Part shown: piece after piece, positions 62 to 15,053 of the stretch | How positions within the stretch are numbered: position 1 is the first letter of the stretch | Layout: the number at the start of each line of letters is the position of its first letter | Virus record (IMG/VR): IMGVR_UViG_3300021400_000072 | Strand: one strand, 5' to 3' | DNA: 15,061 bases | Origin: a virus | Notes under the pieces: model-generated | Database searches by the model: none | Seen by the model: the letters and a program-made list of their open reading frames with translations, nothing else | What the model was told of the DNA's origin: nothing | Made by a program: the position numbers and the translations under genes

Positions 62-1486
62 ATGGCAAATAATGATAATATTATTTATGCTAAATTTAAT
101 CATGGTCGTGAAATAACGACCGATTCACGCTCTCAGTATGCTTATGGGCAGGTGTTGAAAATAAGCGGACTTCACCTGCCCGCAAGTTTTGATGCAGACA
201 TTTCAAACAAAGGTGATAAGCAAGCAAAAGTTGTAATAGGAACAGATAATGAATTACCAATAGATGATGCGTACTTCTTATCAGGCAAAGACGTTATCGT
301 AATGATCAATGTGCATGCCGCAGATAAAGATGGGCGTACTAAATATATTGTCAGAATTCCTGTTGAAAAACGTCCTATTCGTGCAGACATTGAATTAGAA
401 CCTGTCGAACAGGACGTTGTTTCTACAGCTATTGCCACTTTAAATGAAGCTGTTGAACAAACATCGGCAAGTGCGGAAAGTGCCGAAAATAGTGCAAATC
501 GTGCTCAACAGTCAGCAATAAAAGCAGAAACATCAGCAACTAACGCATCTAATTCAGAAACATTGGCACAACAGTATATGGAACGTGCTGAAACTGCCGC
601 CGAAAACGCGGAACAGTCTGAAACAAAAGCAAAAGCTAGTGAAGATAACGCTAAAGCATCTGAGACACATGCTGAACAAATTGCAAATGATATAGAACAA
701 TTTACAGAGCGTGCGGAAACCGCTTCCCGTAATGCAGAATCTTCTGCTACTACTGTTACAGAAAAAGCTAGTGAAGCGTTGAATAGTGCGAATATTGCAT
801 CAGCTAAAGCTAATGAAGCATCAACTTCCGCAACAAACGCACAGAACTCTGCGGATAATGCACAACAATTTGCTACAGGTGCACAAGAATCCGCAAATTC
901 TGCATTAGCATCCGCAAATAAAGCGTTAGTAAATGCAGAGAAAACGCAAAGTGATAAAGAAATAGTTGAACTCGCTAAGTCTAATGTGCTATCTGCTGTA
1001 GGTGAAGCGCAGAATTATGCTGAGTCCGCGCAATCTGCAAATCAAGCTATTCAAAATATGAATGTACAAGCAACCACATTAGAATCTGATTCTGATGCTA
1101 CTGTTGAAAAGTCTGTTGATTCTGTGACTGGCACAGTCACTCTTACATATGGTATCCCTAAAGGAATCAAAGGCGAAAAGGGTGACACAGGAAATAAAGG
1201 CGATAAGGGCGATCCATTTGTTTACTCTGATTTTACTCCCGAACAGCTTGCTTCTCTTAAAGGTGAAAAAGGTGATAAGGGCGATAAAGGAGACCAAGGA
1301 ATTCAAGGTGAACAGGGAATTCAAGGTATTCAGGGTATAAAAGGAGATACTGGTAATTCTGGTGTATATATTGGGGATACCGAACCTACTGATCCGCAAA
1401 TAATAGTTTGGGTAGATACTTCAAAAAATGATGATACAAATAATACTGTGGGAGAAGCAATAGTAGGTAATGCTATAGTAGAATAA
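62..1486 (+). CDS. Tail fibre / baseplate-like structural protein: globular N-terminal domain, long Ala/Ser/Glu/Gln-rich low-complexity (coiled-coil-like) middle region, C-terminal collagen-like G-X-Y repeats (GDKGDTGNKGDKGDP ... GIQGEQGIQGIQGIKGDTG)
   Basis: 474-aa uninterrupted ORF; RBS gaggtg 7 nt upstream of ATG 62; stop TAA; collagen-like G-X-Y triplets visible in translation; architecture typical of phage fibre/receptor-binding proteins (inference). Confidence 0.6.
   Translation: MANNDNIIYAKFNHGREITTDSRSQYAYGQVLKISGLHLPASFDADISNKGDKQAKVVIGTDNELPIDDAYFLSGKDVIVMINVHAADKDGRTKYIVRIPVEKRPIRADIELEPVEQDVVSTAIATLNEAVEQTSASAESAENSANRAQQSAIKAETSATNASNSETLAQQYMERAETAAENAEQSETKAKASEDNAKASETHAEQIANDIEQFTERAETASRNAESSATTVTEKASEALNSANIASAKANEASTSATNAQNSADNAQQFATGAQESANSALASANKALVNAEKTQSDKEIVELAKSNVLSAVGEAQNYAESAQSANQAIQNMNVQATTLESDSDATVEKSVDSVTGTVTLTYGIPKGIKGEKGDTGNKGDKGDPFVYSDFTPEQLASLKGEKGDKGDKGDQGIQGEQGIQGIQGIKGDTGNSGVYIGDTEPTDPQIIVWVDTSKNDDTNNTVGEAIVGNAIVE
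1159..1370 (+). repeat. 9-bp periodic collagen-like (G-X-Y) coding repeats; a second block at 3049-3160
   Basis: ggtgataagggcgat / ggaattcaaggt units. Confidence 0.7.
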
Positions 1487-2994: not shown

Positions 2995-3399
2995 ATGAGT
3001 AAATTAAAAATAAAAGACAAAAACGGGAAATGGGTTGAAATTACTGGTATAAAGGGAGACAAGGGCGATACTGGTAAACAGGGTATCCAAGGTGAACGTG
3101 GAGAAAAAGGTGATAAAGGTGACACAGGTGCATCGGGTCGTGACGGTGTAGACGGCATCTCCCCGACCGTAACTATAACCCTCATCACAGGCGGTCACAG
3201 AATCACTATCACGGATAAGGACGGCACAAAGACGGCTGATGTGATGGACGGAACTACTCCAAGCCTTACCAACTATGTGCAGTTTACCGACCTTGCCACA
3301 ACATCCAGAGCAGGTGCAATGTCCGCACAGGATAAGAGCAGACTTGATGATGTGTATGCGGATTATTCAAGCGCACTTACAGCATTGGGGGTGATTTGA
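2995..3399 (+). CDS. Collagen-like (G-X-Y)n repeat protein, probable fibre component
   Basis: 134-aa ORF; RBS gtgaggtga; GIKGDKGDTGKQGIQGERGEKGDKGDTGASGRDGVDG collagen-like run; stop TGA immediately followed by next ATG (3401). Confidence 0.55.
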   Translation: MSKLKIKDKNGKWVEITGIKGDKGDTGKQGIQGERGEKGDKGDTGASGRDGVDGISPTVTITLITGGHRITITDKDGTKTADVMDGTTPSLTNYVQFTDLATTSRAGAMSAQDKSRLDDVYADYSSALTALGVI

Positions 3400-4921: not shown

Positions 4922-4945
4922 TAGAGATAAAAGGAGAATGATAAA

Positions 4946-5443
4946 ATGGCCAATTTTAATCAAAATGGGATGAATGGTATAATACCTAATCAATATCCCT
5001 ATACTAACAATTTAATAATGAATACTCCTTACGATAATTATCTTGGGAGAAATAATGTAACTGTAAACGCAAATGGTCAAAATTATCCAAATCAATTTTT
5101 AAAATGCAGGCCAGTTGCATCTAAAGAATAGGCAAGAGCCGCTCAGATAGATTTAGATGGCTCTCTATGGGTTTTTACTGATGTTGGAAATTAGAAAATT
5201 TATACTAAACAAATAAATTATGATGGAACAGCAACTTTTAAAACCTATGCTTTAACTGCTGATGAAAATCCTTATAATTCTTCTGAATATGTTACAAAAG
5301 ATGAATTTAATAGTGTAATACAAAGTTTAATGGCGGCAATTCAGTCTCAACCCGTTACCCAAAAAGTTTAGACCGAATCCGCATAGAATAATAAAAATAC
5401 TGGACAAAGCAGTAATAATAATTTTATAGTTAAGAGGGTATAA
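4946..5443 (+). CDS. Hypothetical N/Q/Y-rich protein (165 aa) containing 4 in-frame TAG codons (5129, 5192, 5369, 5384) that would have to be read as sense
   Basis: RBS aaaggagaatg; frame stays open through four TAGs with no TAA/TGA until TAA 5441, in roughly 70% AT DNA; next gene's ATG 6 nt downstream. Confidence 0.5.
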
Positions 5444-5448
5444 TTATT

Positions 5449-5679
5449 ATGAATGTAAATCCGATTCAATTAATAAATATGATAAAAAACGGTCAAAATC
5501 CTCAACAGCTTATGATGAATATTTTAGGACAAAATAATCCTATTCTTAAAAATGCAATGAATCTAGCGCAAAACGGGAACACATCTGCTTTATAGATGAT
5601 TGCACGTAATTTAGCACAACAAAGAGGTTTGGATTTTGATACAGAATTTGCAAAATTTAAAAATTATTTAAATCAATAA
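5449..5679 (+). CDS. Small hypothetical protein (76 aa) with 1 in-frame TAG (5593)
   Basis: RBS aagagggta; ATG 5449; single in-frame TAG then continues to TAA 5677; followed 12 nt later by next gene with RBS. Confidence 0.45.
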
Positions 5680-5691
5680 TGGGAGATACAA

Positions 5692-6459
5692 ATGTTTAAT
5701 AATAATACTAATGGATATTCCTTATCTGATATTGCAGCCGCAACAGGCAATAATAATAATGGTTTTGGTTTTAATGGCGATGGAGCCTGGATCTTTTTCT
5801 TATTTATTTTAATGCTTGCGGGCGGTTGGAATAATAACGGTTTCGGTGGAAATGGACAGCCTGCTGTTATAGCTGATGTTCAACGTGGTTTTGATCAGAG
5901 TGCCCTTATGAATAGTTTAAACGGTGTGACTGCCGCAATAAATACTGGCTTTTCAAATGCGGAAGTATCTCGTTGTAATTCACAAGCGAATATCCTACAA
6001 ACATTAAACAATAATCAAGCAAATCTATCTACTCAATTAAATACAATAGCAATGAATCAACAGAACTGTTGTTGTTAGAATAGAGCGGGATTAGCTGATC
6101 TGAAGTATACTGTAGCTACAGAAGCATGTGCAGACCGCACAGCAGTTACAGATGCTTTAAGAGATGTAATTGCATCAAATACAGCAAATACACAGGCCAT
6201 TCTTGATAAACTTTGTCAACAATAGATTGAATCTCTCAAGGCTCAGAATCAACAGCTTCAGATGCAGGGTTATCTTGCTAATTTAGCAGCTTCTCAAAAT
6301 GCTCAAACTGGACAGATTCTTGCAGATAACGCGGCTCAGACAGCTACATTACGTCAGGCCTTAAATCCTACTCCTATCCCTGCATATGTTGTTGCAAATC
6401 CTAATGGATGCAACTGCGGAAACTGGAACGGATGTTGCGGTAACGGTTTTTATAACTGA
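5692..6459 (+). CDS. N/G/C-rich membrane-anchored protein (255 aa) with 2 in-frame TAGs (6076, 6223). N-terminus carries a Gly/Asn-rich segment followed by a hydrophobic helix (GFGFNGDGAWIFFLFILMLAGGW), resembling the tiny-TM, Gly-rich spore-associated peptides of Firmicutes. C-terminus is Cys-rich (NPNGCNCGNWNGCCGNGFYN).
   Basis: RBS gggagatacaa + ATG 5692; ORF-track pieces 5692..6078 and 6262..6459 are in the same frame and joined only by two TAGs; stop TGA 6457. Confidence 0.55.
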
Positions 6460-6474
6460 TAAGGAGGTTAATCC

Positions 6475-6930
6475 ATGGCTAGTTATGTAACAACTGCTGA
6501 TGCAACAGTAGCTTTAAATGGAACGATTCCCTTTAATAGTGTTTCTATTCCCTGTAACAAAGGTAATATTATTCCTATTGTTCCTGGAATTCTTAACTTA
6601 AATGGTAATACTTCTAATCGTTTTGCAAGATATGATATTACTCTCCAAGGAAATATTCAAATCCCTACAGGCGGAACAGTTACTCCTATAGCAATTGGAA
6701 TTACTCTTAATGGGGTAGTAATACCGTAGAGTGTTGCAATCGTAACACCTGCGGCCGCAGGAGAATATTGGCATGTAAATACTACAGCGTCTGTAACTGT
6801 TCCTTGTGGCTGTTGTTTAACCGTATCTGGAGCATATATAGACGGTACTGAAGATGACCCAGCTATAACTCCTACCCCTTCTATTTTAGTTAGACGTGGG
6901 GCTTCATTAACAGGAATCAGGACAGCATAA
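6475..6930 (+). CDS. Hypothetical protein (151 aa) with 1 in-frame TAG (6727)
   Basis: RBS aaggaggttaatcc + ATG 6475; frame continues past TAG 6727 to TAA 6928; antisense ORF 6657..7016 is therefore spurious. Confidence 0.5.
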
Positions 6931-6940
6931 GGAGGAAAAT

Positions 6941-7504
6941 ATGGGAACTGAAGCATTAAAAATGATGAAAGACCAACTAATGAGTTGTGTACAAAGTCAA
7001 CTTGGTGATATATCAAAGGCAGATGCCCATGAACTTGGTGAAGCTGTTGATATGATAAAAGATTTGTCTGAAGCGATATACTATTGTACTATTACTGATT
7101 CAATGGAAAAAGCAGAAGAAAAAGAAAAAACTTCTGTTAATAATATAAATTATTATACCACCCCATATCCAGATTATAGAAATATGGAACGCAATAATGG
7201 ATATATGTATTATTCTGGCGGGAATGGTGGTAATATGGGAGGTAATTCTAGCTCCAATGGCGGAACTACCTCTTATTATACTGAAATGATGAGAGATCCC
7301 CGTTAGGGAAGATCTCCAATAAGAAGAAGAATGTATATGGAAGGTAAAGAAATGCATAAAGATACAAGTTCTCAACTTCATGAACTAGAAGCATACCTTC
7401 AAGAACTTTCTTCAGACATAACAGAAATGATTAAAGACGCATCACCAGAAGAGAGAACTACATTACGTCAAAAAATGACCACATTAGCTAATAAAATTAA
7501 CTAA
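6941..7504 (+). CDS. Hypothetical protein (187 aa) with Gly/Asn/Tyr-rich low-complexity segment and 1 in-frame TAG (7304)
   Basis: RBS aaggaggaaaat + ATG 6941; frame open past TAG 7304 to TAA 7502. Confidence 0.5.
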
Positions 7505-7505
7505 T

Positions 7506-7820
7506 ATGTTTTTAATCAATAATGTTTATTGGAAACTCTCTTTTGTTGCTCCTAATTTTCCTTTATTACAAAGATTAAACGGAGAATTTTCAATAGGAGC
7601 ATGTGATAATCTTACTCGAACAATTTATATAAACGAAACGTTACAAGGAGATTTATTGCGGAAGGTACTTTGCCACGAAATAACACATGCTGCAATGTTT
7701 TCTTATAATGTTAATCTTTCTCTTGAGCAATAGGAATTGATAGCAGATTTAATTTCTACATATGGAGATGAGATTATTTATATAACAAATAAAATTTTTA
7801 ATAAATTAGGAAATATATAA
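7506..7820 (+). CDS. Small HExxH zinc-metallopeptidase-like protein (ImmA/IrrE-type motif VLCHEITHAAM) with 1 in-frame TAG (7731)
   Basis: ATG 7506 abuts upstream TAA (translational coupling); HEITH motif in translation; frame continues through TAG 7731 to TAA 7818; strong terminator follows. Confidence 0.45.
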
Positions 7821-7824
7821 ATTG

Positions 7825-7866
7825 ATAGCTGTCGGTTCTACTTTTAACCGACAGCTATTTTTTTTT
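7825..7866 (+). terminator. Rho-independent terminator (13-bp perfect stem atagctgtcggtt/aaccgacagctat, 7-nt loop, T9 tract)
   Basis: Direct inspection; lies right after the TAA of the HExxH gene. Confidence 0.85.
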
Positions 7867-7890
7867 AGAATTATAAAAAAGGGGAGATAA

Positions 7891-8400
7891 ATGAATCTAT
7901 TATAGACAATTGAAAAAATTATTCATCAAATTCGTCCTTTTGAAGGTATTAGTTCTTGTGTAATTTTTATTTTATTTATAATCGGCACAGTAATACAAAT
8001 TTCTCCTATAAAAATTAATCCTTGGGATTTTTTATTAGGGTGGATAGGAGAAAGATTTAATTCTGGAATTAATAAAAAAGTAGGGCAGTTAGAAAAGAAA
8101 ATAGATTAGCATATAGAAAGTAGTAAGAATAAAGATTTAAAATAGCAAAGATAGTATATTATTTCCTTTGTCGATGAAGGTGTTAATGGAAAACGACATA
8201 CAAAAGAATCTTTCTAGAATGCGATACGAGCTTGTGATGCATATGAGAAATATGTTCGTTAGAATGATATTGAAAATGGCGTTATCGTATCTTCTATTAG
8301 TGCCATTAGATTAAAATATGAACAACATTTAATTAATGCTGATTTTGCAACAGGCGAACATTATGTTGAAAATGCTAAATAGATGCAAAATGAAAACTGA
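7891..8400 (+). CDS. Membrane protein, holin-like: N-terminal hydrophobic helix, then coiled-coil/charged region. Contains 7 in-frame TAGs (7903, 8107, 8143, 8152, 8215, 8260, 8380).
   Basis: RBS aaaaggggagataa + ATG 7891; 169-codon frame with 7 TAG and zero TAA/TGA until TGA 8398; reads naturally if TAG is Gln (KIDQHIESS..KQQRQYI..FQNAIRACDAYEKYVRQND); flanked by terminators on both sides. Confidence 0.55.
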
Positions 8401-8470: not shown

Positions 8471-8519
8471 CAAAAAGCCTCGATATGAGTCATATTCATA
8501 TCGAGGCTTTATTTTTTTA
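8471..8519. terminator. Bidirectional rho-independent terminator (15-bp perfect stem aaagcctcgatatga/tcatatcgaggcttt flanked by A5 and T7 runs) between convergent genes
   Basis: Direct inspection; separates + holin-like gene and - vWA gene. Confidence 0.85.
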
Positions 8520-10022
8520 TCTAATTACGGCATATCTTTCACTATTAATAGCTTCAAGCATTAAGTCGTAACCTGTCTTACCAGTAATAACTTGCTTGAA
8601 AATAGTAGGAGACATACCGCTTACAAACGATACATTAGGACCTGCATCCAGGATTGTATTCTGGCGGGCATCCACATTCCAATAGACCAGCTTAGGAAGC
8701 TGTAGGCCATAAGCTGCCCACTTCTGACGAATCTTCTCCATCTCTGTTGAAGCAGAACGCTTTGTCCAATGACTATCACTCCAATAACCAGTACCACTAT
8801 CAATTTCCATATCAGAAATAACTACAATGGTCTTAGGAATGTCACTCTGCTTAACACCTCTCTTAGTTGCTGTCTTTAGAAGTAAATCAAATACAGCTTC
8901 TAGGTTAGTATTATCACAAAGATTTGTCTTGTAGATACGGCGAGCCTTATCTACAAAATCAATACCTTCTGTCTTAATCAGCTGAGGATGTGAAGCAAAA
9001 CTAATATAGTAATTCTTAAAAGGACCACCAATACGTTCTGCGCAATACAAACCTAGACTGATTGCTACGTTAAGAGGAGCCGCCGCATCTTTACCAGTCA
9101 TAGAACCAGAAGTATCTACGACACACATCATGCTACAATCCTTACCATTAAGATAATCAGGAAGATTATCCCAATACTTATTAATCATAGCACGTTCAGT
9201 TTCACTAAGAGCCTCAAAGTTGTAAGACCATGTTGAAGCCTTAACTGCCTTAGCTACCACTTCATAAGGGTAAAGTACAGAAGCATTAACCTTTGTATTC
9301 TTATCTTTTGCAAAAGATTCATACTTCTTAGCGATAATATCACGTCTTGCAAAAGCATTACGATAAATAATACCTGCGCGAGAAGGAATCTTATCAAACT
9401 CAATCTTATCCCATTCGTTGGCGGACATCAGTCTTTCAAGAACATTAATCTTAACTCTTAGCTTTGAAAGCATCTGACGATACTGCTTAGAAGTAACTCC
9501 TAAATACTGTCTAATCTTCTTTGCTCTTGCAATTGTTTCCTTACTTGAAGCATTTTCAGAAGGAAGCCACTTAGCGATAAGGCTAATACCATTCTTCTTA
9601 CATGCCATATCCTCACGAAGCTGCTTTTCAATAAGAGCCATTACATTCTTTTCAACAGGAGTGTCGAAAAGTTCGAACAGGTCATCATATCTACCATATT
9701 CAGGAAGATATTCAATCAAGTTACGGGCGCGGGCAGGCTTGTTCTCTGCCAACCAGCGGAAGCATGTACGGAAGAATCTACGTTCACCCTGACCACCACG
9801 GCAGTCACGAATATAGAATAGACACTTCAGTGCAAGAACTGAATCCTCTTCAAAGGCGTTCTTGAAAAGAAGGATACAATCTTCGTCTGTACGCTTACGA
9901 TAAGCGGCACCCATAGCAAACAATGTATAAACGTCACTATTTAACTTTTTATAAGCGAGTGCTCCATTCTCTGTTCTCTTGTAATTGAAATCGTTTGAAA
10001 GCTGATTCATAAATGTATTCAT
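8517..10022 (-). CDS. vWA-domain protein with MIDAS motif (VVDTSGSM). Its N-terminal alpha-helical module resembles the DUF2828 family and the TROVE (Ro60-like) module (TENGALAY...LFAMGAAYRK).
   Basis: 501-aa uninterrupted ORF; DxSGS MIDAS signature near residue 300; N-terminal motif pattern similar to the Ro60 N-x-x-G-x-x-A-F...L-F/I-x-L-G motif; family assignment from memory, not searched. Confidence 0.7.
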   Translation of the reverse strand: MNTFMNQLSNDFNYKRTENGALAYKKLNSDVYTLFAMGAAYRKRTDEDCILLFKNAFEEDSVLALKCLFYIRDCRGGQGERRFFRTCFRWLAENKPARARNLIEYLPEYGRYDDLFELFDTPVEKNVMALIEKQLREDMACKKNGISLIAKWLPSENASSKETIARAKKIRQYLGVTSKQYRQMLSKLRVKINVLERLMSANEWDKIEFDKIPSRAGIIYRNAFARRDIIAKKYESFAKDKNTKVNASVLYPYEVVAKAVKASTWSYNFEALSETERAMINKYWDNLPDYLNGKDCSMMCVVDTSGSMTGKDAAAPLNVAISLGLYCAERIGGPFKNYYISFASHPQLIKTEGIDFVDKARRIYKTNLCDNTNLEAVFDLLLKTATKRGVKQSDIPKTIVVISDMEIDSGTGYWSDSHWTKRSASTEMEKIRQKWAAYGLQLPKLVYWNVDARQNTILDAGPNVSFVSGMSPTIFKQVITGKTGYDLMLEAINSERYAVIR

Positions 10023-10251: not shown

Positions 10252-10352
10252 ATTTAAAAAATAAATTTTATTCTTTGCCTATCTATTTCTCTGCAAATAA
10301 GTAATTTTATTAAAAATAATTTTGTTTTCTTTTTCATAAAATACTCCTTTAA

Positions 10353-10424
10353 TACTCCCAGCGGGAATCGAACCCACATCGAAGGCTTAGAAGGCCTTTG
10401 CTTTATCCTTTAAACTATAGGAGT
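10353..10424 (-). tRNA. tRNA-Arg (anticodon TCT)
   Basis: Hand-folded cloverleaf: 7-bp acceptor (one G-U), T-loop TTCGATT, anticodon stem AAGGC/GCCTT, loop CTTCTAA. Confidence 0.7.
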
Positions 10425-10520
10425 ATAATAAGGCTCTTTGCTACTTCTTTTCCCAACCTTCTGAGTGATGGTACTTACACAGCGGTTCGCTTCAGATTTT
10501 CAGAATTACCTTATATTAAA

Positions 10521-10592
10521 TATCCCATACAAGAATCGAACTCGCATTTTTAGGGCCGTAACCTAACGGTTTATCCATTAGCCTAATGGGAT
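10521..10592 (-). tRNA. tRNA-Arg (anticodon ACG), slightly atypical (G37, one D-stem mismatch)
   Basis: Perfect 7-bp acceptor ATCCCAT/ATGGGAT; anticodon stem TTAGG/CCTAA, loop TTACGGC; T-loop TTCGATT. Confidence 0.55.
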
Positions 10593-10597
10593 ATAAT

Positions 10598-10667
10598 TGC
10601 GCCACTACGAATCGAACGTAAATCTCCCCCGTATGCAAGGGGGTATGTTACCATTACACCACGGCGC
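10598..10667 (-). tRNA. tRNA-like with 8-nt anticodon loop TTGCATAC (contains CAT; Met/Ile2-like with one extra nucleotide). Possible pseudogene or noncanonical tRNA.
   Basis: Acceptor GCGCCGT/GTGGCGC (two G-U pairs); anticodon stem CCCCC/GGGGG enclosing 8 nt; 4-bp T-stem; positions 8-9 are GG. Confidence 0.4.
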
Positions 10668-10772
10668 GAGCATTTATCATATTTTTTGTTTGTTTACGGT
10701 TAGCTACTCCGCACCCTAAACAACTTTTTTGATAAATGTTAATACAATACATTAATTAACTTTTGTACTAAA

Positions 10773-10845
10773 CAGGAGCGGAAGGATTCGAACCTTCATA
10801 ATCACGGTGTTGGAGACCGTTGCTGTACCATTGAGCCACGCCCCT
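10773..10845 (-). tRNA. tRNA-Trp (anticodon CCA)
   Basis: Perfect T-stem GAAGG/CCTTC with TTCGAAT loop; anticodon stem ACGGT/ACCGT, loop CTCCAAC; 7-bp acceptor with one G-U. Confidence 0.7.
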
Positions 10846-10852
10846 TTAGTTT

Positions 10853-11272
10853 TTAACGATACCCGTTAGAAAACCCAGGAAGATTACAATACTCACGAAT
10901 AAATTCTTCAGGAGAATTATTAAAAAGACCATCTAACTGTTCAAGAGAAAGATTAGTTTCTTTTACAATAGGATAAATCTCATACTGGAGATTTTCGCTC
11001 ATAAGTTCATTAAGAACATCGGTATATTCATCATCTGCTCCTGAAGTAGAATCTTCCATATATTCATCTAATTCATCTTCATCCCAACCTATTTCGTTGG
11101 CGGCAGCCGCTTCCAAATCATCCATAATAGAAGAATATTCTTCCATAATAGCATAAGACTCGTCAATAGCCATTTCTTCAACTTCTTCTTCAGTACCCTC
11201 TGCAACAAAATAGGATACCATTCCGTGCATTCCATTATACATCTGTTCACAAGCGATTACTGCATAAAGCAT
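10853..11272 (-). CDS. Highly acidic protein (139 aa, D/E-rich), possible DNA-mimic/anti-restriction-type protein (speculative)
   Basis: RBS aaaggaag 9 nt upstream; stop TAA; very high Asp/Glu content in translation. Confidence 0.5.
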   Translation of the reverse strand: MLYAVIACEQMYNGMHGMVSYFVAEGTEEEVEEMAIDESYAIMEEYSSIMDDLEAAAANEIGWDEDELDEYMEDSTSGADDEYTDVLNELMSENLQYEIYPIVKETNLSLEQLDGLFNNSPEEFIREYCNLPGFSNGYR

Positions 11273-11552
11273 AGTTTAAATCTTCCTTTCTTTTTTTAAT
11301 AATGCACACCACAAAATTGTACACAGGTTAAATACATGTGATGTGCTATAACCTGTTTTGCCTAGCGTTTCAGATGTGTTTTAGTCCTAATTTATTTAGG
11401 ACAATCACGCATAGTCCCATTCACATCAGGGGCTTTAGGTCTCACTGTATGTAGCCGGATTCACCCTTCCTATCCCCCACTCATACAGGATGGTTGATCG
11501 TTTTTATACCGCATCTCCATTCTACGGTCAACCGAGCATTTGACTCAGTTTA

Positions 11553-11635
11553 AGCCAGCAATAGGATTTGAACCTATATCGTTTTAGGCCTTACACTCCT
11601 TGGGGGAGCCGCTTTACCAATTAAGCTATGCTGAC
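11553..11635 (-). tRNA. Type II (long variable arm) tRNA-like, anticodon CAA (Leu) by position but with poor anticodon-stem pairing; possibly degenerate
   Basis: Good acceptor (GTCAGCA/TGCTGGC), D-arm GCTT/AAGC and T-arm ATAGG/CCTAT. The anticodon region folds best as a CTCC/GGAG stem with a 5-nt loop. The variable arm forms no clear hairpin. Confidence 0.4.
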
Positions 11636-11643
11636 ATTTTTAG

Positions 11644-11715
11644 CAGGCCCAGATGGAATCGAACCATCACATCGTGAGTCAAAGTCACGTGCGCTAGCCG
11701 TTACGCTATGGGCCC
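11644..11715 (-). tRNA. tRNA-Gln (anticodon TTG)
   Basis: Anticodon stem CGTGA/TCACG, loop CTTTGAC; T-arm GATGG/CCATC; acceptor GGGCCC/GGGCCT. Confidence 0.7.
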
Positions 11716-11734
11716 ATATACAAGAGACATTATT

Positions 11735-11806
11735 AGTAGACCGCGGGATTCGAACCCGCATATCAAAATTCGCAGTTTTGTATCTTATCCATTAGATTAA
11801 ATCCAT
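11735..11806 (-). tRNA. tRNA-like element with intact T-arm, anticodon arm (loop CTGCGAA, anticodon GCG) and D-arm, but a 5' acceptor strand that cannot pair with the 3' strand; probable pseudo-tRNA or tRNA mimic
   Basis: T-stem GCGGG/CCCGC, anticodon stem CAAAA/TTTTG, D-stem ATCT/AGAT all perfect; expected 5' strand GGTCTAC is absent (observed ATGGATT). Confidence 0.35.
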
Positions 11807-11884
11807 TAATTTTTTTTATTGCTGTGTGTCTCTTTATCAACTTTCTATATATATTATAATAAAAATTTTTATTTTTTTCAAATA

Positions 11885-11959
11885 AGCACAGAGTGGGATT
11901 TGAACCCACGAATAACGGTTTTGCAGACCGCTGCGGTAACCAGGCTGCGCCATCCGTGC
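11885..11959 (-). tRNA. tRNA-Cys (anticodon GCA)
   Basis: T-stem GTGGG/CCCAC; anticodon loop CTGCAAA; 7-bp acceptor with one G-U. Confidence 0.7.
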
Positions 11960-11963
11960 AAAA

Positions 11964-12003
11964 GAAAGGGATATGAAACGTATAAATTTCATACCCTTTT
12001 TTA
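11964..12003. terminator. Hairpin terminator (about 13-bp stem with one bulge, loop cgtataaa, T-runs on both sides) between - gene 12006..12194 and tRNA-Cys
   Basis: Direct inspection. Confidence 0.6.
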
Positions 12004-12005
12004 AA

Positions 12006-12194
12006 TTAATCGACCGATTTTACTTCAATATATTTAGGCTTGATTAAAACCTGTTTCTGTAATGCATGAGTTATCTGGAACATGCGGAAACGTGCTTCCC
12101 GCCTAGCTTCATCTCGTTCTTTTTTATTCTCAATATCATTAACAGGATTAAAAGATTCCAATGCATTAGTGCCTATTGTTTTCCACTTAGACAT
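12006..12194 (-). CDS. Small basic hypothetical protein (62 aa)
   Basis: ORF with RBS aaggagag upstream; followed (transcript sense) by a hairpin terminator. Confidence 0.4.
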   Translation of the reverse strand: MSKWKTIGTNALESFNPVNDIENKKERDEARREARFRMFQITHALQKQVLIKPKYIEVKSVD

Positions 12195-12208
12195 TAATAA
12201 ACTCTCCT

Positions 12209-12556
12209 TTAGTTAAGAAAATCCTTCAAAATTCTTTCAAATTCATTGCTGGTAATAGGAGTCGCTACAGGTCTCTTTTCTTTCTGCGAAGGTGACTCCA
12301 GAACAGCTTCTACTAAATCTACCAGCAAAGGATTTTCATTTTCATATGTTTTAACATATTTAAGAATTTCTTTATTAAGAGCCTGAATCTTTTCTTCAAG
12401 GTTTGCTTTTGCGATAGCCTTTTCTGCTTCAAATCTACGTTTTTCTTCTGCTTCTTTACGTTTCTCTTCTGCTTCTGTCTTCTTTTTGAGTTCAGCTTCA
12501 ATACATTCTTTTTCTGAATCAAAAATCTCATCCAGAACTTCACTATAAAATTTCAT
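12209..12556 (-). CDS. Lys/Glu-rich coiled-coil hypothetical protein (115 aa)
   Basis: RBS gagaggaaaaaagaATG; charged heptad-like EEKRKEAEEKRR repeats. Confidence 0.5.
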   Translation of the reverse strand: MKFYSEVLDEIFDSEKECIEAELKKKTEAEEKRKEAEEKRRFEAEKAIAKANLEEKIQALNKEILKYVKTYENENPLLVDLVEAVLESPSQKEKRPVATPITSNEFERILKDFLN

Positions 12557-12597
12557 TCTTTTTTCCTCTCTTTTTTAAAATATTTTTATTAACGAAA

Positions 12598-12671
12598 GGT
12601 GGCTAACGGGACTTGAACCCGTAACAGGCGGTACCACAAACCGCTGGACTACCAAATTGTCCTATAACCAC
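12598..12671 (-). tRNA. tRNA-His (anticodon GTG), discriminator C
   Basis: Anticodon stem GCGGT/ACCGC, loop TTGTGGT; T-stem ACGGG/CCCGT; discriminator C73 as expected for His. Confidence 0.7.
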
Positions 12672-12673
12672 AG

Positions 12674-12747
12674 CTGGAGTGGTGAGACTCGAACTCACGG
12701 CATCGTGATCCCAAATCACGCATTCTAGCCAACTGAATTACACCCCA
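12674..12747 (-). tRNA. tRNA-Pro (anticodon TGG)
   Basis: Anticodon stem CGTGA/TCACG, loop TTTGGGA; D-stem ATTC/GAAT; T-stem GTGAG/CTCAC; 2 nt from tRNA-His. Confidence 0.7.
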
Positions 12748-12806
12748 ATATACAAGACACATAAATAAGTATTGATCTACCCATTGATCTATTTTGTCTA
12801 TTCTGG

Positions 12807-12851
12807 CAACAAAAATCGGATTTGAACCGATAACATATACTAAACGTATAA
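12807..12851 (-). tRNA. tRNA 3'-half remnant (acceptor 3' strand + T-arm) followed by a short hairpin; no matching 5' half
   Basis: T-stem ATCGG/CCGAT with ATTTGAA loop; no complementary acceptor strand downstream; flanked by attgctgtgtgtgtc motif. Confidence 0.3.
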
Positions 12852-12880
12852 ATTGCTGTGTGTGTCTTATTATTAAATTA

Positions 12881-13114
12881 TTAACCTAACATAGCAAAAT
12901 CTATAAATCTTTTTACATCATCTGCATTATAACAAACCAATTCCATCTCAGGAATATTTGAATCTTCAAACATCTTAGCAAAAGCAATATATTGAGTAAG
13001 ACGACTCTTTAGATTTAATCTATCGCCTTCTTCTGTTACTAATTCAACTTTTCCTGTACACTTATCAACTGTTTCAAAAAACTTTTTAATATCATTAATA
13101 TGATATAACTTCAT
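12881..13114 (-). CDS. Small hypothetical protein (77 aa)
   Basis: RBS aaaaggagaataaATG; stop TAA. Confidence 0.45.
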   Translation of the reverse strand: MKLYHINDIKKFFETVDKCTGKVELVTEEGDRLNLKSRLTQYIAFAKMFEDSNIPEMELVCYNADDVKRFIDFAMLG

Positions 13115-13235
13115 TTATTCTCCTTTTATATAATCTCTATAAGTACAATATTCTTCAAACGTTCCTTTGAAGCCATTTTCAACAGCCTTAGAATATTCTT
13201 CATTTAGAACTTTTGAATAACTTATAGATTCCTAA

Positions 13236-13541
13236 TTAAACTACATAACCGATTGCTAACTCATCTGTATACTCTCTTTCTCTTGCGGTCATTGCAAGAA
13301 AACGTTTAATGTCAGAATGGCTCCACCAGTGTCCGCCATGTCTACCTTTTTCTTCTCCAAACGCCGGTCTACGCTTAGAAACTTTAGGTTTACAAAGAGA
13401 ACATGAACAATGAATTTTACCTTTACTATACTGATGAAGGTGAGGATACCATTCACTACCATCTCTTTCTTTACAAATTTTCTGCTTTCTGATTGCCTTT
13501 GTCCAATCATTATGTCTCTTTTCTGCAAGTGTTCTACACAT
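13236..13541 (-). CDS. Cys/His-rich small protein (101 aa), probable zinc-binding; embedded in tRNA array
   Basis: Internal ATG (13539-13541) has RBS aaggag 8 nt upstream; the longer ORF-track start (13616) would overlap tRNA-Ser; CSCSLC ... HGGHWWSH motifs. Confidence 0.45.
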   Translation of the reverse strand: MCRTLAEKRHNDWTKAIRKQKICKERDGSEWYPHLHQYSKGKIHCSCSLCKPKVSKRRPAFGEEKGRHGGHWWSHSDIKRFLAMTAREREYTDELAIGYVV

Positions 13542-13574
13542 GATAAACTCCTTTGAAACTAGGTTAACAGAAAG

Positions 13575-13659
13575 CGGTGCGAGAGGGATTCGAACCCCCA
13601 GCCCAATTAAGAGCAACGGTTTTCAAGACCGCACCTCCTCCCCACTAAGGTACCGCACC
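13575..13659 (-). tRNA. tRNA-Ser (anticodon TGA), type II
   Basis: 85 nt; anticodon stem + loop CTTGAAA; long variable arm; T-loop TTCGAAT. Confidence 0.65.
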
Positions 13660-13842
13660 ATATCAAGGCTTAAAAAGTTTCATTTTCTCTTTTTTCAGAG
13701 GTCAATTCCTATTAAGAATAAGAAATAGAAAACTTTCAAATAAAAGAAACTTGTCTATTTTACGACCAAAATTCTCCTAAGAATCATGTTAAATCTTGTA
13801 ATTTTAAACCCATTAAAAATAAAATTGCCGTATAAGCCTTAG

Positions 13843-13930
13843 CGCGGATGAGTGGATTCGAACCACCGGACCCAAATGTAGGGTCAATACCTTAGCAGGG
13901 TACCGCATTAAACCTCTCTGCCACATCCGC
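13843..13930 (-). tRNA. tRNA-Ser (anticodon GCT), type II
   Basis: 88 nt; perfect acceptor GCGGATG/CATCCGC; variable-arm hairpin GACCC/GGGTC; anticodon loop CTGCTAA. Confidence 0.7.
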
Positions 13931-13939
13931 AAATTGGGA

Positions 13940-14012
13940 TAGCCCGCCGGAGAATCGAACTCCGATTTCTGGTTTTAGAGACCAGCGTCTTAAACCGTTT
14001 GACCACCGGGCC
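13940..14012 (-). tRNA. Amber suppressor tRNA (anticodon CTA, decodes UAG); type I, amino-acid identity not determinable by eye
   Basis: Perfect 5-bp anticodon stem CTGGT/ACCAG with 7-nt loop CTCTAAA (U33, anticodon CUA, A37); perfect T-stem CGGAG/CTCCG with TTCGATT loop; acceptor 6/7 bp. Confidence 0.7.
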
Positions 14013-14137
14013 ATACCAAGACAGATTAAAAATTGCTTTAATTAGATTACAAGTCCAATGCAAAAATTAAAATAGATTGCTGTTTCTGTCTTTCATCTTA
14101 TAAATATATTATATAATAATTTTTTTAAAAAATCAAA

Positions 14138-14211
14138 TGCATGATATAGGATTTGAACCTATGCCCCTTTCGGTGTAAACGAAATGCTCATCCCAGCTGA
14201 GCTAATCATGC
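14138..14211 (-). tRNA. tRNA-Val (anticodon TAC)
   Basis: Perfect acceptor GCATGAT/ATCATGC; anticodon stem TTTCG/CGAAA, loop TTTACAC; D-stem GCTC/GAGC. Confidence 0.75.
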
Positions 14212-14379
14212 ATATTGGCGGGAAACTCCCGCCTAATCCGACTTTTGAGTTTCACAGGTATCGGGGAGGAACCAGGGATTAAATCCAGCCCACCTTAATA
14301 TTTAGTTTCCCATCTCCTCGGGGTAACTAACAAACCTGAGGGTCTTCCATATCGCACGTGCATATTGATATAGAATAAA

Positions 14380-14455
14380 TGGACCGTGTGGGAATTGAAC
14401 CCACCTGATTTTCTGTGTGCAAGACAGATGACCACCCCGTGCAGTCCCACAGCCC
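14380..14455 (-). tRNA. tRNA-Ala (anticodon TGC)
   Basis: Anticodon stem TCTGT/ACAGA, loop CTTGCAC; T-stem GTGGG/CCCAC; acceptor GGGCTGT/ACGGTCC with two G-U; 7-nt variable region. Confidence 0.55.
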
Positions 14456-14681
14456 AGTACTAAGAGGCTTGATTACCCTCTTTACAGCAGTTTGATCCTG
14501 CTTGCCGATGACGTTATAGGTCCGCCGCCCGCACATTTATTTGCTAAAACACGGTTTCCAGGGTATCTTTGTATAATCACATTACCGCAAAGAGGTATAT
14601 ACCTTTATCATATTATAGACGCGTTTCTATAATATTCTCCCAAATTTTTTATTGTACATAGATGGTAAAGAGACAATAAAA

Positions 14682-14755
14682 TACTACGAAGTGGACTCGA
14701 ACCACTGACGACTTCCTTATCAGAGAAGCATTCTAACCTACTGAATTATCGTAGT
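14682..14755 (-). tRNA. tRNA-Ile (anticodon GAT)
   Basis: Perfect acceptor ACTACGA/TCGTAGT; T-stem AGTGG/CCACT; anticodon loop CTGATAA. Confidence 0.75.
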
Positions 14756-14969
14756 AAATAAGGGTTAAAAGGAAAGGAAAATGCATTTTTACTTCGTAAT
14801 AACCTTTCTCAGTTAACCATCTAATTTTTATGCCTGTCTAGCCTTATACTAGAATATTACATATGCGATAAGTTGTTCTGTTGCATCGCTATTTTGAACT
14901 ATCCCTGTCTCCTTATCAAAATTAGACACCTTTACTATATTTCAAGGCTTTTTGCGGCGTCCCGCTTAG

Positions 14970-15053
14970 TCCTGGGAGAGGGAATCGAACCCACTCGGTG
15001 CCGAAGCCATGGGATTTACAGTCCCACCCGTCTCCTTAGCGGTCTACCCCAGG
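14970..15053 (-). tRNA. tRNA-Tyr (anticodon GTA), type II
   Basis: 84 nt; anticodon stem TGGGA/TCCCA, loop CTGTAAA; long variable arm; T-stem has one mismatch. Confidence 0.6.

Follow-up and report, generated by a model that had tools for sequence, protein, structure and literature searches.

A conserved phage transfer RNA with GCAU in an eight-nucleotide anticodon loop and an initiator-like acceptor end

Transfer RNAs (tRNAs) with an eight-nucleotide (8-nt) anticodon loop are known from yeast mitochondria and a few phages, and suppressor mutants of this kind are classical. The natural examples are very rare and, to our knowledge, a function is known in almost no case. Here we describe a natural example found in a 15,061-nt stretch of viral DNA (IMG/VR record IMGVR_UViG_3300021400_000072; the whole stretch is called the window below). 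A 72-nt cloverleaf tRNA gene without encoded CCA lies on the minus strand at 10668..10597. Its loop UUGCAUAC holds the four bases GCAU, i.e., CAU with one extra G before it. It is very probably a genuine gene under selection as a folded tRNA. Three aspects are new: an expanded loop whose conservation is backed by selection, the initiator-type acceptor stem that it sits on, and the presence of another gene built alike in a phage that recodes TAG. No description of such a tRNA was found in the searchable literature. We know of no natural counterpart of the engineered initiator qtRNA-fMet and of no natural AUGN start codon. Nor do we know of any report of initiator-type acceptor stems or of pairs of UU-NNNN-AC loops among earlier odd-loop phage tRNAs.

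Bacterial initiator tRNA, tRNAfMet (CGCGGGG...CUCAUAA...CCCCGCAACCA in E. coli and B. subtilis; phage copies in L123-L130, the L-numbers being locus labels of retrieved contigs), shares with the GCAU tRNA the C1xA72 mismatch, G2-C71, C3-G70, G4-C69 and A73, as well as G12-C23, CAU followed by A37 and a G+C-rich anticodon stem by the loop. The GCAU tRNA differs from it in the 8-nt loop (G before CAU), U11-A24 and the CCC/GGG stem orientation, and its body sequence is otherwise unrelated. The engineered qtRNA-fMet-ATGG, which starts translation in E. coli at a four-base codon (residue 1), also has an initiator-type acceptor and one base 5' of CAU (NCAU), but it is artificial, keeps the body of E. 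coli tRNAfMet intact and has C inserted (AUGG) where the phage tRNA has G (AUGC) (DeBenedictis, Soll & Esvelt 2022, PMC9094753). The classical +1 suppressors (sufD Gly-CCCC, sufA6/SufB2 Pro, sufJ Thr and sufG) also acquired 8-nt loops by insertion beside the anticodon. They are laboratory mutants of elongators in which positions 1 and 72 pair, and were obtained by selection for suppression of frameshift mutations, whereas the phage gene is natural and conserved, has an initiator-like end and does not have its cognate quadruplet avoided. Yeast mitochondrial tRNAThr1(UAG), loop UUUUAGGU, is another case of a natural, conserved 8-nt loop with cognate four-base strings in frame in essential genes (PMC3113583). 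It is an organellar elongator with a demonstrated CUN-to-Thr reassignment, and no reassignment is evident in the phage. Deviant anticodon loops in large phage arrays have been described for odd-loop tRNAs (PMC5009743) and for tRNAs that evade nucleases (PMC10264068), although the latter keep 7-nt loops.

The minus strand reads CGCGCCG-UG-GUGU-AAUGGUA-ACAU-A-CCCCC-UUGCAUAC-GGGGG-AGAU-UUACG-UUCGAUU-CGUAG-UGGCGCA-A. Rfam model RF00005 matches it at 10597-10668 (minus strand) with 43.5 bits, above the gathering score of 29 (E=1.4e-6 for the window), and U8, A14, G18G19, A21, U54U55C56 and A58 are all present. The 7-nt loop with U33 and an anticodon at 34-36, as expected of this family, is absent from the window tRNA. 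The Infernal alignment places four residues at the three-column anticodon region of the model, i.e., one extra loop base. ARAGORN, a check proposed in a preliminary description of this DNA, reports the expanded loop as 'tRNA-??? anticodon (gcat)' at 10596-10669 (minus strand). A cloverleaf with an 8-nt loop is both the minimum free energy structure from RNAfold and the consensus that RNAalifold gives for eight homologues. The CCCCC/GGGGG stem and the loop at 10631-10638 thus match the first description in full, and all four programs give an 8-nt loop instead of an alternative 7-nt fold. The features are as follows.

10597..10668, minus strand: whole tRNA gene, CGCGCCGUGGUGUAAUGGUAACAUACCCCCUUGCAUACGGGGGAGAUUUACGUUCGAUUCGUAGUGGCGCAA (Rfam RF00005, ARAGORN, family covariance model)
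10662..10668, minus strand: acceptor stem, 5' strand C1 G2 C3 G4 C5 C6 G7, with C1 (10668) unpaired opposite A72
10645..10661, minus strand: U8 G9 and D arm, stem GUGU/ACAU, loop AAUGGUA (Infernal alignment, homologues)
10639..10643, minus strand: anticodon stem, 5' strand CCCCC, positions 27-31 (sequence, homologues, RNAfold)
10631..10638, minus strand: 8-nt anticodon loop UUGCAUAC (ARAGORN, Infernal, RNAfold, RNAalifold)
10633..10636, minus strand: GCAU core, CAU with an extra G before it (invariant in all eight distinct homologues)
10626..10630, minus strand: anticodon stem, 3' strand GGGGG, positions 39-43 (compensatory changes at 28-42 and 29-41 in relatives)
10605..10625, minus strand: variable loop AGAU and T arm, UUACG / UUCGAUU / CGUAG (homologue comparison)
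10597..10604, minus strand: acceptor stem, 3' strand U66 G67 G68 C69 G70 C71 A72, and discriminator A73 at 10597 (Infernal alignment, homologue comparison)
10669..10706, minus strand: conserved 5' leader (..ACAAAAAAUAUGAUAAAUGCU) directly upstream of the tRNA, near-identical in all relatives

A sigma-70 promoter was sought in the conserved leader and no consensus site scored. Only 3-4 nt separate the tRNA from the next one on its 3' side (Arg-ACG, 10521-10592), and this tight packing implies co-processing with the array.

The register of the acceptor stem deserves comment. Infernal and ARAGORN both start the tRNA at C10668; the Infernal alignment flags the 1-72 pair as non-canonical, and the ARAGORN drawing shows 'c a' there. 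Read from this base, the tRNA has U8, G9, a 4-bp D stem, a 4-nt variable loop and a 5-bp T stem (with U49.G65). Its tertiary bases are canonical (A14, A15:U48, G18G19, A21, U54-A58), and the C1xA72 mismatch is the sole irregularity outside the anticodon loop. RNAalifold alone prefers the 10667-type pairing (U8-N65, G2..U8 with positions 65..71). Covariation cannot separate the two registers because the G65/A65 polymorphism fits both. We adopted the 10668 register because it leaves the universal tertiary bases and the 2-nt connector intact, because both tRNA-specific predictors chose it, and because a sister tRNA encoded by this phage shows a mismatch of this kind where the register is not in doubt. 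The preliminary description placed a tRNA correctly here, but the gene reads on the minus strand and, in the adopted register, runs from 10668 to 10597 and does not start at 10667; the GG at positions 8-9 and the 4-bp T stem that it noted as atypical are products of the 10667 start.

Homologues were searched for by exact and degenerate pattern scans. The tRNA was found in three IMG/VR contigs and seven metagenome contigs, and an identical copy is present in two long ENA contigs, one of which is the window's own contig (ERZ28612966 scaffold_493, 87 kb). There are eight distinct versions from independent metagenome assemblies, all of one phage lineage, and the phage genomes that carry them differ by 4-16% at the DNA level (84-96% identical). 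Aligned on the canonical structure, 98% of the pair cells in the eight homologues are standard pairs. Two double substitutions in the stem are both compensatory: C29-G41 to U-A in L076 and C28-G42 to U-A in L049. Each of the five stem changes that affect one side only exchanges a Watson-Crick pair for a wobble pair or the reverse, and pairing is kept. Relatives vary in the acceptor stem (C6 to U giving U.G, G7 to A giving A-U, C1 to A giving AxA) and in the D stem (G10.U25 to G-C, U13-A22 to U.G). The T arm and variable loop are invariant except for G65/A65 (U49.G to U49-A), and U8, A14, G18, G19 and A21 never change. The tRNA diverges at up to 14 of its 72 positions, and neighboring bona fide Arg tRNAs, whose folds are kept too, at up to 20 of 74. 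The gene has been maintained through compensatory evolution and is not a recent pseudogene.

With a covariance model built on the family, the eight homologues reach 94 bits or more and none of the remaining tRNAs of 43 related loci exceeds 45 bits; no diverged copy scored between 45 and 94 bits in these loci. No copy was found in the representative genomes of 185,579 bacterial and archaeal species (the 42 matches to a 3'-half pattern were all non-tRNA), so neither a host copy nor a prophage form was found in those genomes. A DNA search of INPHARED found no close cultured relative, only generic tRNA-Trp/Arg matches, and further scans of viral contigs with T-arm patterns returned only the three contigs already known.

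Four types of anticodon arm occur in the family: CCCCC-UUGCAUAC-GGGGG, CCUCC-UUGCAUAC-GGAGG, CUCCC-AAGCAUAA-GGGAG and CCUCC-GUGCAUGA-GGUGG. The loop follows the form N-N-G-C-A-U-R-N and is closed by a 5-bp stem. The 8-nt loop is seen in the window and in five of the eight distinct homologues. GCAU is invariant in all eight, while the four flanking loop positions vary (U/A/G, U/A, A/G, C/A), among them the U33 position, which is A in L049. This is the pattern shown by anticodons, and the neighboring Arg tRNAs also combine a constant anticodon with variable loop flanks.

The acceptor end bears on the amino acid identity. In the 10668 register, and only there, C1xA72, G2-C71, C3-G70, G4-C69 and A73 make up the acceptor signature of bacterial tRNAfMet; L058 retains a 1x72 mismatch in the form AxA. 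Met-tRNA formyltransferase relies mainly on C1-A72, with A73, G2-C71, C3-G70 and G4-C69 as minor determinants, and the CGCG...CGCAA ends match this set (PMC9976931, PMC1635315). The CAU anticodon alone suffices for recognition by the E. coli methionyl-tRNA synthetase (MetRS) (PMC9976931). Canonical phage tRNAfMet is among the best non-family matches to the family model, at only about 42 bits, and its alignment places a gap exactly at the extra G (uUGCAUaa vs CU-CAUAA). From these sequence features we lean slightly toward a Met identity, and an initiator-type role is suggested tentatively. Other identities were considered and rejected. A73 speaks against a tRNA-Cys (GCA), since the phage's own canonical tRNA-Cys carries U73. 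A tRNA-Ile2 with lysidine-modified CAU is not supported by C3-G70 and G4-C69, as the Ile-type acceptor stem has G3/A3 with C70/U70, or C4-G69 and C5-G68 (PMC1635315). A tRNA-Sec-like 8/5 architecture has the wrong D arm. A Y-RNA-like partner of the adjoining Ro-like protein (see below) is rejected for want of a Ro-binding helix and of an Rfam match.

The same contig encodes a second 8-nt-loop tRNA at L119 1101-1172, about 6.4 kb past the right end of the window, with loop UUUUUGAC and A1xA72. An intact copy (L133 1596-1667) with the same loop is found in a 142-kb relative (CGCGGGG...CCCCGCAA) and a degenerate one with a T-stem deletion at L041 13173-13237. The L119 and L133 copies differ by a compensatory G5-C68/A5-U68 change. 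The acceptor and T arms of this tRNA are identical to those of canonical tRNAfMet genes of other phages (CGCGAGG..A11-U24..CAAGG-CUCAUAA-CCUUG..CCUCGCAA). Both this tRNA and the GCAU tRNA have a UU-NNNN-AC loop frame and an acceptor end of the form xGCG...CGCAA. Another odd gene, the third, is found in the window at 11553-11635 (minus strand); it is a type-II tRNA with a long variable arm, and its arm GCUCC-CCCAA-GGAGU has a 5-nt loop. Its relatives (L007 2644-2727, L051 9876-9958, L058 4783-4865) have loops CGCAA or CUGCAA, with a compensatory stem change in L058, and ARAGORN forces a 'Trp CCA' reading with a 4-bp stem; a link with the decoding of UGN, or with tRNAs that have a 4-bp stem, is possible. 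Anticodon loops of non-canonical form thus recur in this lineage and are conserved in it. A further 8-nt-loop tRNA (loop CUUGUUAA, ARAGORN 'tgtt') was noticed at L031 4623-4694 in a more distant phage that carries DUF2828.

The loop UU-GCAU-AC has one extra nucleotide and a four-base core complementary to AUGC, and we looked at how this string is used. In the called genes of the contig (5,744 codons), AUG is followed in frame by C at 13 of 98 Met codons (13.3%, 11.9% expected). The figures are 10 of 64 in the window (15.6%, 13% expected) and 34 of 286 pooled over relatives (13-14% expected). CAA-A, the cognate of the sister tRNA, occurs at 51 of 125 CAA codons in the same called genes (35.6% expected). 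Neither in-frame AUG-C nor CAA-A is depleted. Efficient quadruplet decoding by an elongator is unlikely on this codon evidence, because AUG-C is not avoided and an efficient decoder would shift the frame at dozens of sites. Su et al. inferred triplet reading for yeast mitochondrial tRNAThr1 by the same in-frame argument (PMC3113583); both features of that triplet-reading 8-nt-loop type, a conserved loop and tolerated in-frame cognates, are found here as well. No +1 pairs of open reading frames (ORFs) joined at ATGC were found in the roughly 48 kb of contig sequence scanned. The GCAU tRNA is probably not a general frameshift suppressor, which leaves room for rare, site-specific use.

We tentatively favor the explanation that the gene encodes a functional Met/fMet-type, initiator-like tRNA variant. 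MetRS would charge it through the CAU triplet and Met-tRNA formyltransferase would formylate it via the acceptor determinants. It would then act from the ribosomal P site as an alternative type of initiator, not as an elongator delivered by EF-Tu; a C1xA72 acceptor mismatch weakens EF-Tu use. The extra G would sit between U33 and C34. It may simply be tolerated, so that CAU reads AUG with a loop unlike that of the host initiator, or it may give four-base complementarity to AUGC. An expanded-loop initiator is competent in principle, because the engineered qtRNA-fMet-ATGG initiates at a four-base start codon (PMC9094753). A more specific version of the proposal is unlikely, namely that the phage makes natural initiators with four-base anticodons (GCAU, and UUUG on a tRNAfMet-like acceptor) that start at AUGC/CAAA or other non-standard sites, or that set the frame +1 from AUG.

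Several observations weigh against an initiator-like function. The D stem is U11-A24 in all eight homologues, whereas A11-U24 is found in 100% of tRNAfMet genes, and the anticodon stem has C29C30C31/G39G40G41 (U29-A41 in L076), the inverted G-C orientation relative to the initiator signature R29G30G31/Y39C40Y41 (PMC1635315). Entry via the IF3/P-site checkpoints is uncertain because both of these initiator features are absent. The 1x72 mismatch depends on the register, and RNAalifold favors the other one. The array's Arg-GCG tRNA (window 11735-11806), clearly an elongator, is also mismatched at 1-72 (AxC). In L006, L051 and L054 the arm has a U.U mismatch in the 8-nt register, and four of its five substitutions build a shifted perfect helix, ACCUC/GAGGU, with a 7-nt loop CGUGCAU. 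ARAGORN labels this arm 'Ala tgc', and the two folds of the full cloverleaf are nearly isoenergetic (-15.7 vs -15.2 kcal/mol). The modeled shifted helix, if formed, would take CAU out of the anticodon position in these three loci. A scan of about 48 kb of the contig revealed no Shine-Dalgarno (SD) motif followed by an AUGC or CAAA start with a long +1 ORF. The gene is also missing from the close relative L005 and is thus dispensable or accessory. With the two initiator features of the D and anticodon stems absent, we regard the tRNA as initiator-like at the acceptor end only and do not class it as a tRNAfMet. The single SD-start match in related loci ('GAGGctttgATGCAAAac' in L120) is antisense within the DUF2828 gene and not conserved in the window, and it was discarded as spurious.

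The main rival to an initiator-like role is a non-decoding one, which we consider rather unlikely. The gene product would be a tRNA-like RNA serving as a decoy or competitor for a host enzyme directed at tRNAs or at the initiator tRNA (an anticodon nuclease or an acetyltransferase toxin); in variants of the idea it would donate aminoacyl groups while evading EF-Tu, or act as a regulatory ligand. The array contains at least three tRNA-like genes without a 7-nt loop (GCAU, UUUUUGAC and the type-II gene with its 5-6-nt loop CCCAA/CGCAA/CUGCAA), and a Ro/TROVE-like DUF2828 protein is encoded beside them. Substitutions cluster in the anticodon arm (8 of 18 columns variable, 10 of 54 elsewhere), the L006-type arm re-registers to another loop and U33 is replaced by A in L049; the exact invariance of GCAU and the purine 3' of it nevertheless resemble an anticodon plus position 37, and bona fide Arg neighbors vary at the loop flanks too. 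Phage tRNAs are known to counter tRNA-targeting defenses by anticodon-loop changes, but those described still decode and have 7-nt loops (PMC10264068), and no defense target has been identified here. A +1 frameshift suppressor, the role proposed in the preliminary description, would be delivered by EF-Tu and read AUGC as a four-base codon, with Met inserted at programmed sites. The loop architecture of that proposal, a four-base anticodon of the N+CAU type, holds. It is complementary to AUGC; sufD, sufG, sufJ and SufB2 arose by single-base insertion in the anticodon loop (PMC9094753, PMC4238358), and the UUUG core of the sister tRNA is a sufG-type anticodon. The elongator part of the proposal is highly improbable in view of the initiator-like acceptor end, whose 1x72 mismatch disfavors EF-Tu, the lack of depletion of in-frame AUG-C and CAA-A and the lack of +1 ORF pairs joined at ATGC. 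Odd-loop-size phage tRNAs are 'not known to mediate frameshifting' (Atkins et al. 2016, PMC5009743).

Decay of the gene was another early suggestion. A pseudogene, i.e., a former Met/fMet tRNA broken by a 1-nt insertion that persists only as a processing spacer in the array, would account for the non-canonical loop, the lowest Rfam score of the array, the absence of the gene from L005 and the degenerate second odd tRNA in L041. We consider it quite unlikely. All stem substitutions but one keep pairing across genomes 4-16% apart, two of them as compensatory doubles, and the single exception creates an alternative perfect helix. The tertiary-interaction bases and the GCAU core do not change, and a loop length of eight is retained in three independent arm variants. 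An indel introduced into an ordinary CAU tRNA by sequencing or assembly was also raised at the outset; it has nothing for it beyond the a priori possibility, and its probability is negligible. The same or a co-varying 8-nt loop recurs in independent projects (IMG/VR, JGI, ENA and NCBI records), the extra base lies outside any homopolymer run, and a normal 7-nt CAU tRNA at this position was looked for in the relatives and none has one. An indel artefact is excluded and decay is disfavored because eight distinct versions from independent assemblies keep the cloverleaf and GCAU.

If the two tRNAs were four-base initiators, some reading frames would be translatable only in infected cells, a counterpart of TAG recoding at the level of initiation, and the GCAU tRNA would be a natural equivalent of the engineered qtRNA-fMet. 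The gene raises the question of whether four-base start codons or frame-setting initiators exist in nature. It can also be asked whether expanded loops are an escape from nucleases or toxins that target initiator tRNA, and whether phages make tRNA-shaped decoys. For annotators, 'tRNA-???' labels in phage arrays should not automatically be treated as junk.

The right third of the window is filled by 17 minus-strand tRNAs (ARAGORN, 10352-15053), part of an array of 31 in the contig; the GCAU tRNA has the lowest Rfam score among them (43.5 bits). The window holds no canonical tRNA-Met by ARAGORN, as had been noted. The contig has one Met-CAU tRNA 5.4 kb past the right end (L119 5170-5243; also L120 4733-4807), its only one with a 7-nt loop (CUCAUAC). 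With U1xU72, G2-C71, C3-G70, G4-C69 and A73 it is initiator-like in sequence, and the 31 tRNAs of the array included no clear elongator Met tRNA. Many tRNAs of the array are flanked by U(-1) and A73-U74, and because of these flanks ARAGORN draws 8-bp acceptor stems with coordinates one base off those of Rfam. The array tRNAs lack encoded CCA, except possibly the suppressor tRNA (3' flank tcc). This tRNA, with a CUA anticodon (amber suppressor, labeled 'Pyl' by ARAGORN), is at 13937-14013 (minus strand). The phage recodes TAG: plus-strand ORFs tile 4931-8400 once this codon is treated as sense, and 18 in-frame TAGs occur within the contig's public gene calls. The phage genome measures about 90-180 kb and derives from metagenomes of the gut or rumen. 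Its genes have strong AGGAG-type ribosome-binding sites; together with the kinship of its DUF2828 protein to those of Bacillus phages, these suggest that the host is probably a member of the Bacillota.

The DUF2828/DUF7788/vWA protein (TROVE/Ro60-like) is encoded at 8517-10022 (minus strand) and adjoins the tRNA array in all relatives. Its nearest cultured kin are in Bacillus phages (about 40% identity), and proteins of this type are annotated as 'Ro-like RNA binding protein' in mycobacteriophages. In L120 (12991-15359) the DUF2828 gene is split by a LAGLIDADG homing-endonuclease ORF. Some relatives have an unannotated inverted-repeat element of structured appearance (aaggtaac...gttacct) between tRNAs (L005 870-1035; L006 4345-4578, duplicated); the element next to the tRNA in L006 gave no Rfam match. 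At its place the window has a 95-nt spacer between two Arg tRNAs (10426-10519). On the plus strand, tandem 27-nt repeats ('cctttgggga...caacac') were found at 2461-2740 inside ORF 1502-2968, and collagen-like GXY repeats are encoded at 1160-1290 and 3050-3130 in the tail-fibre-like ORFs 62-1486 and 2995-3399.

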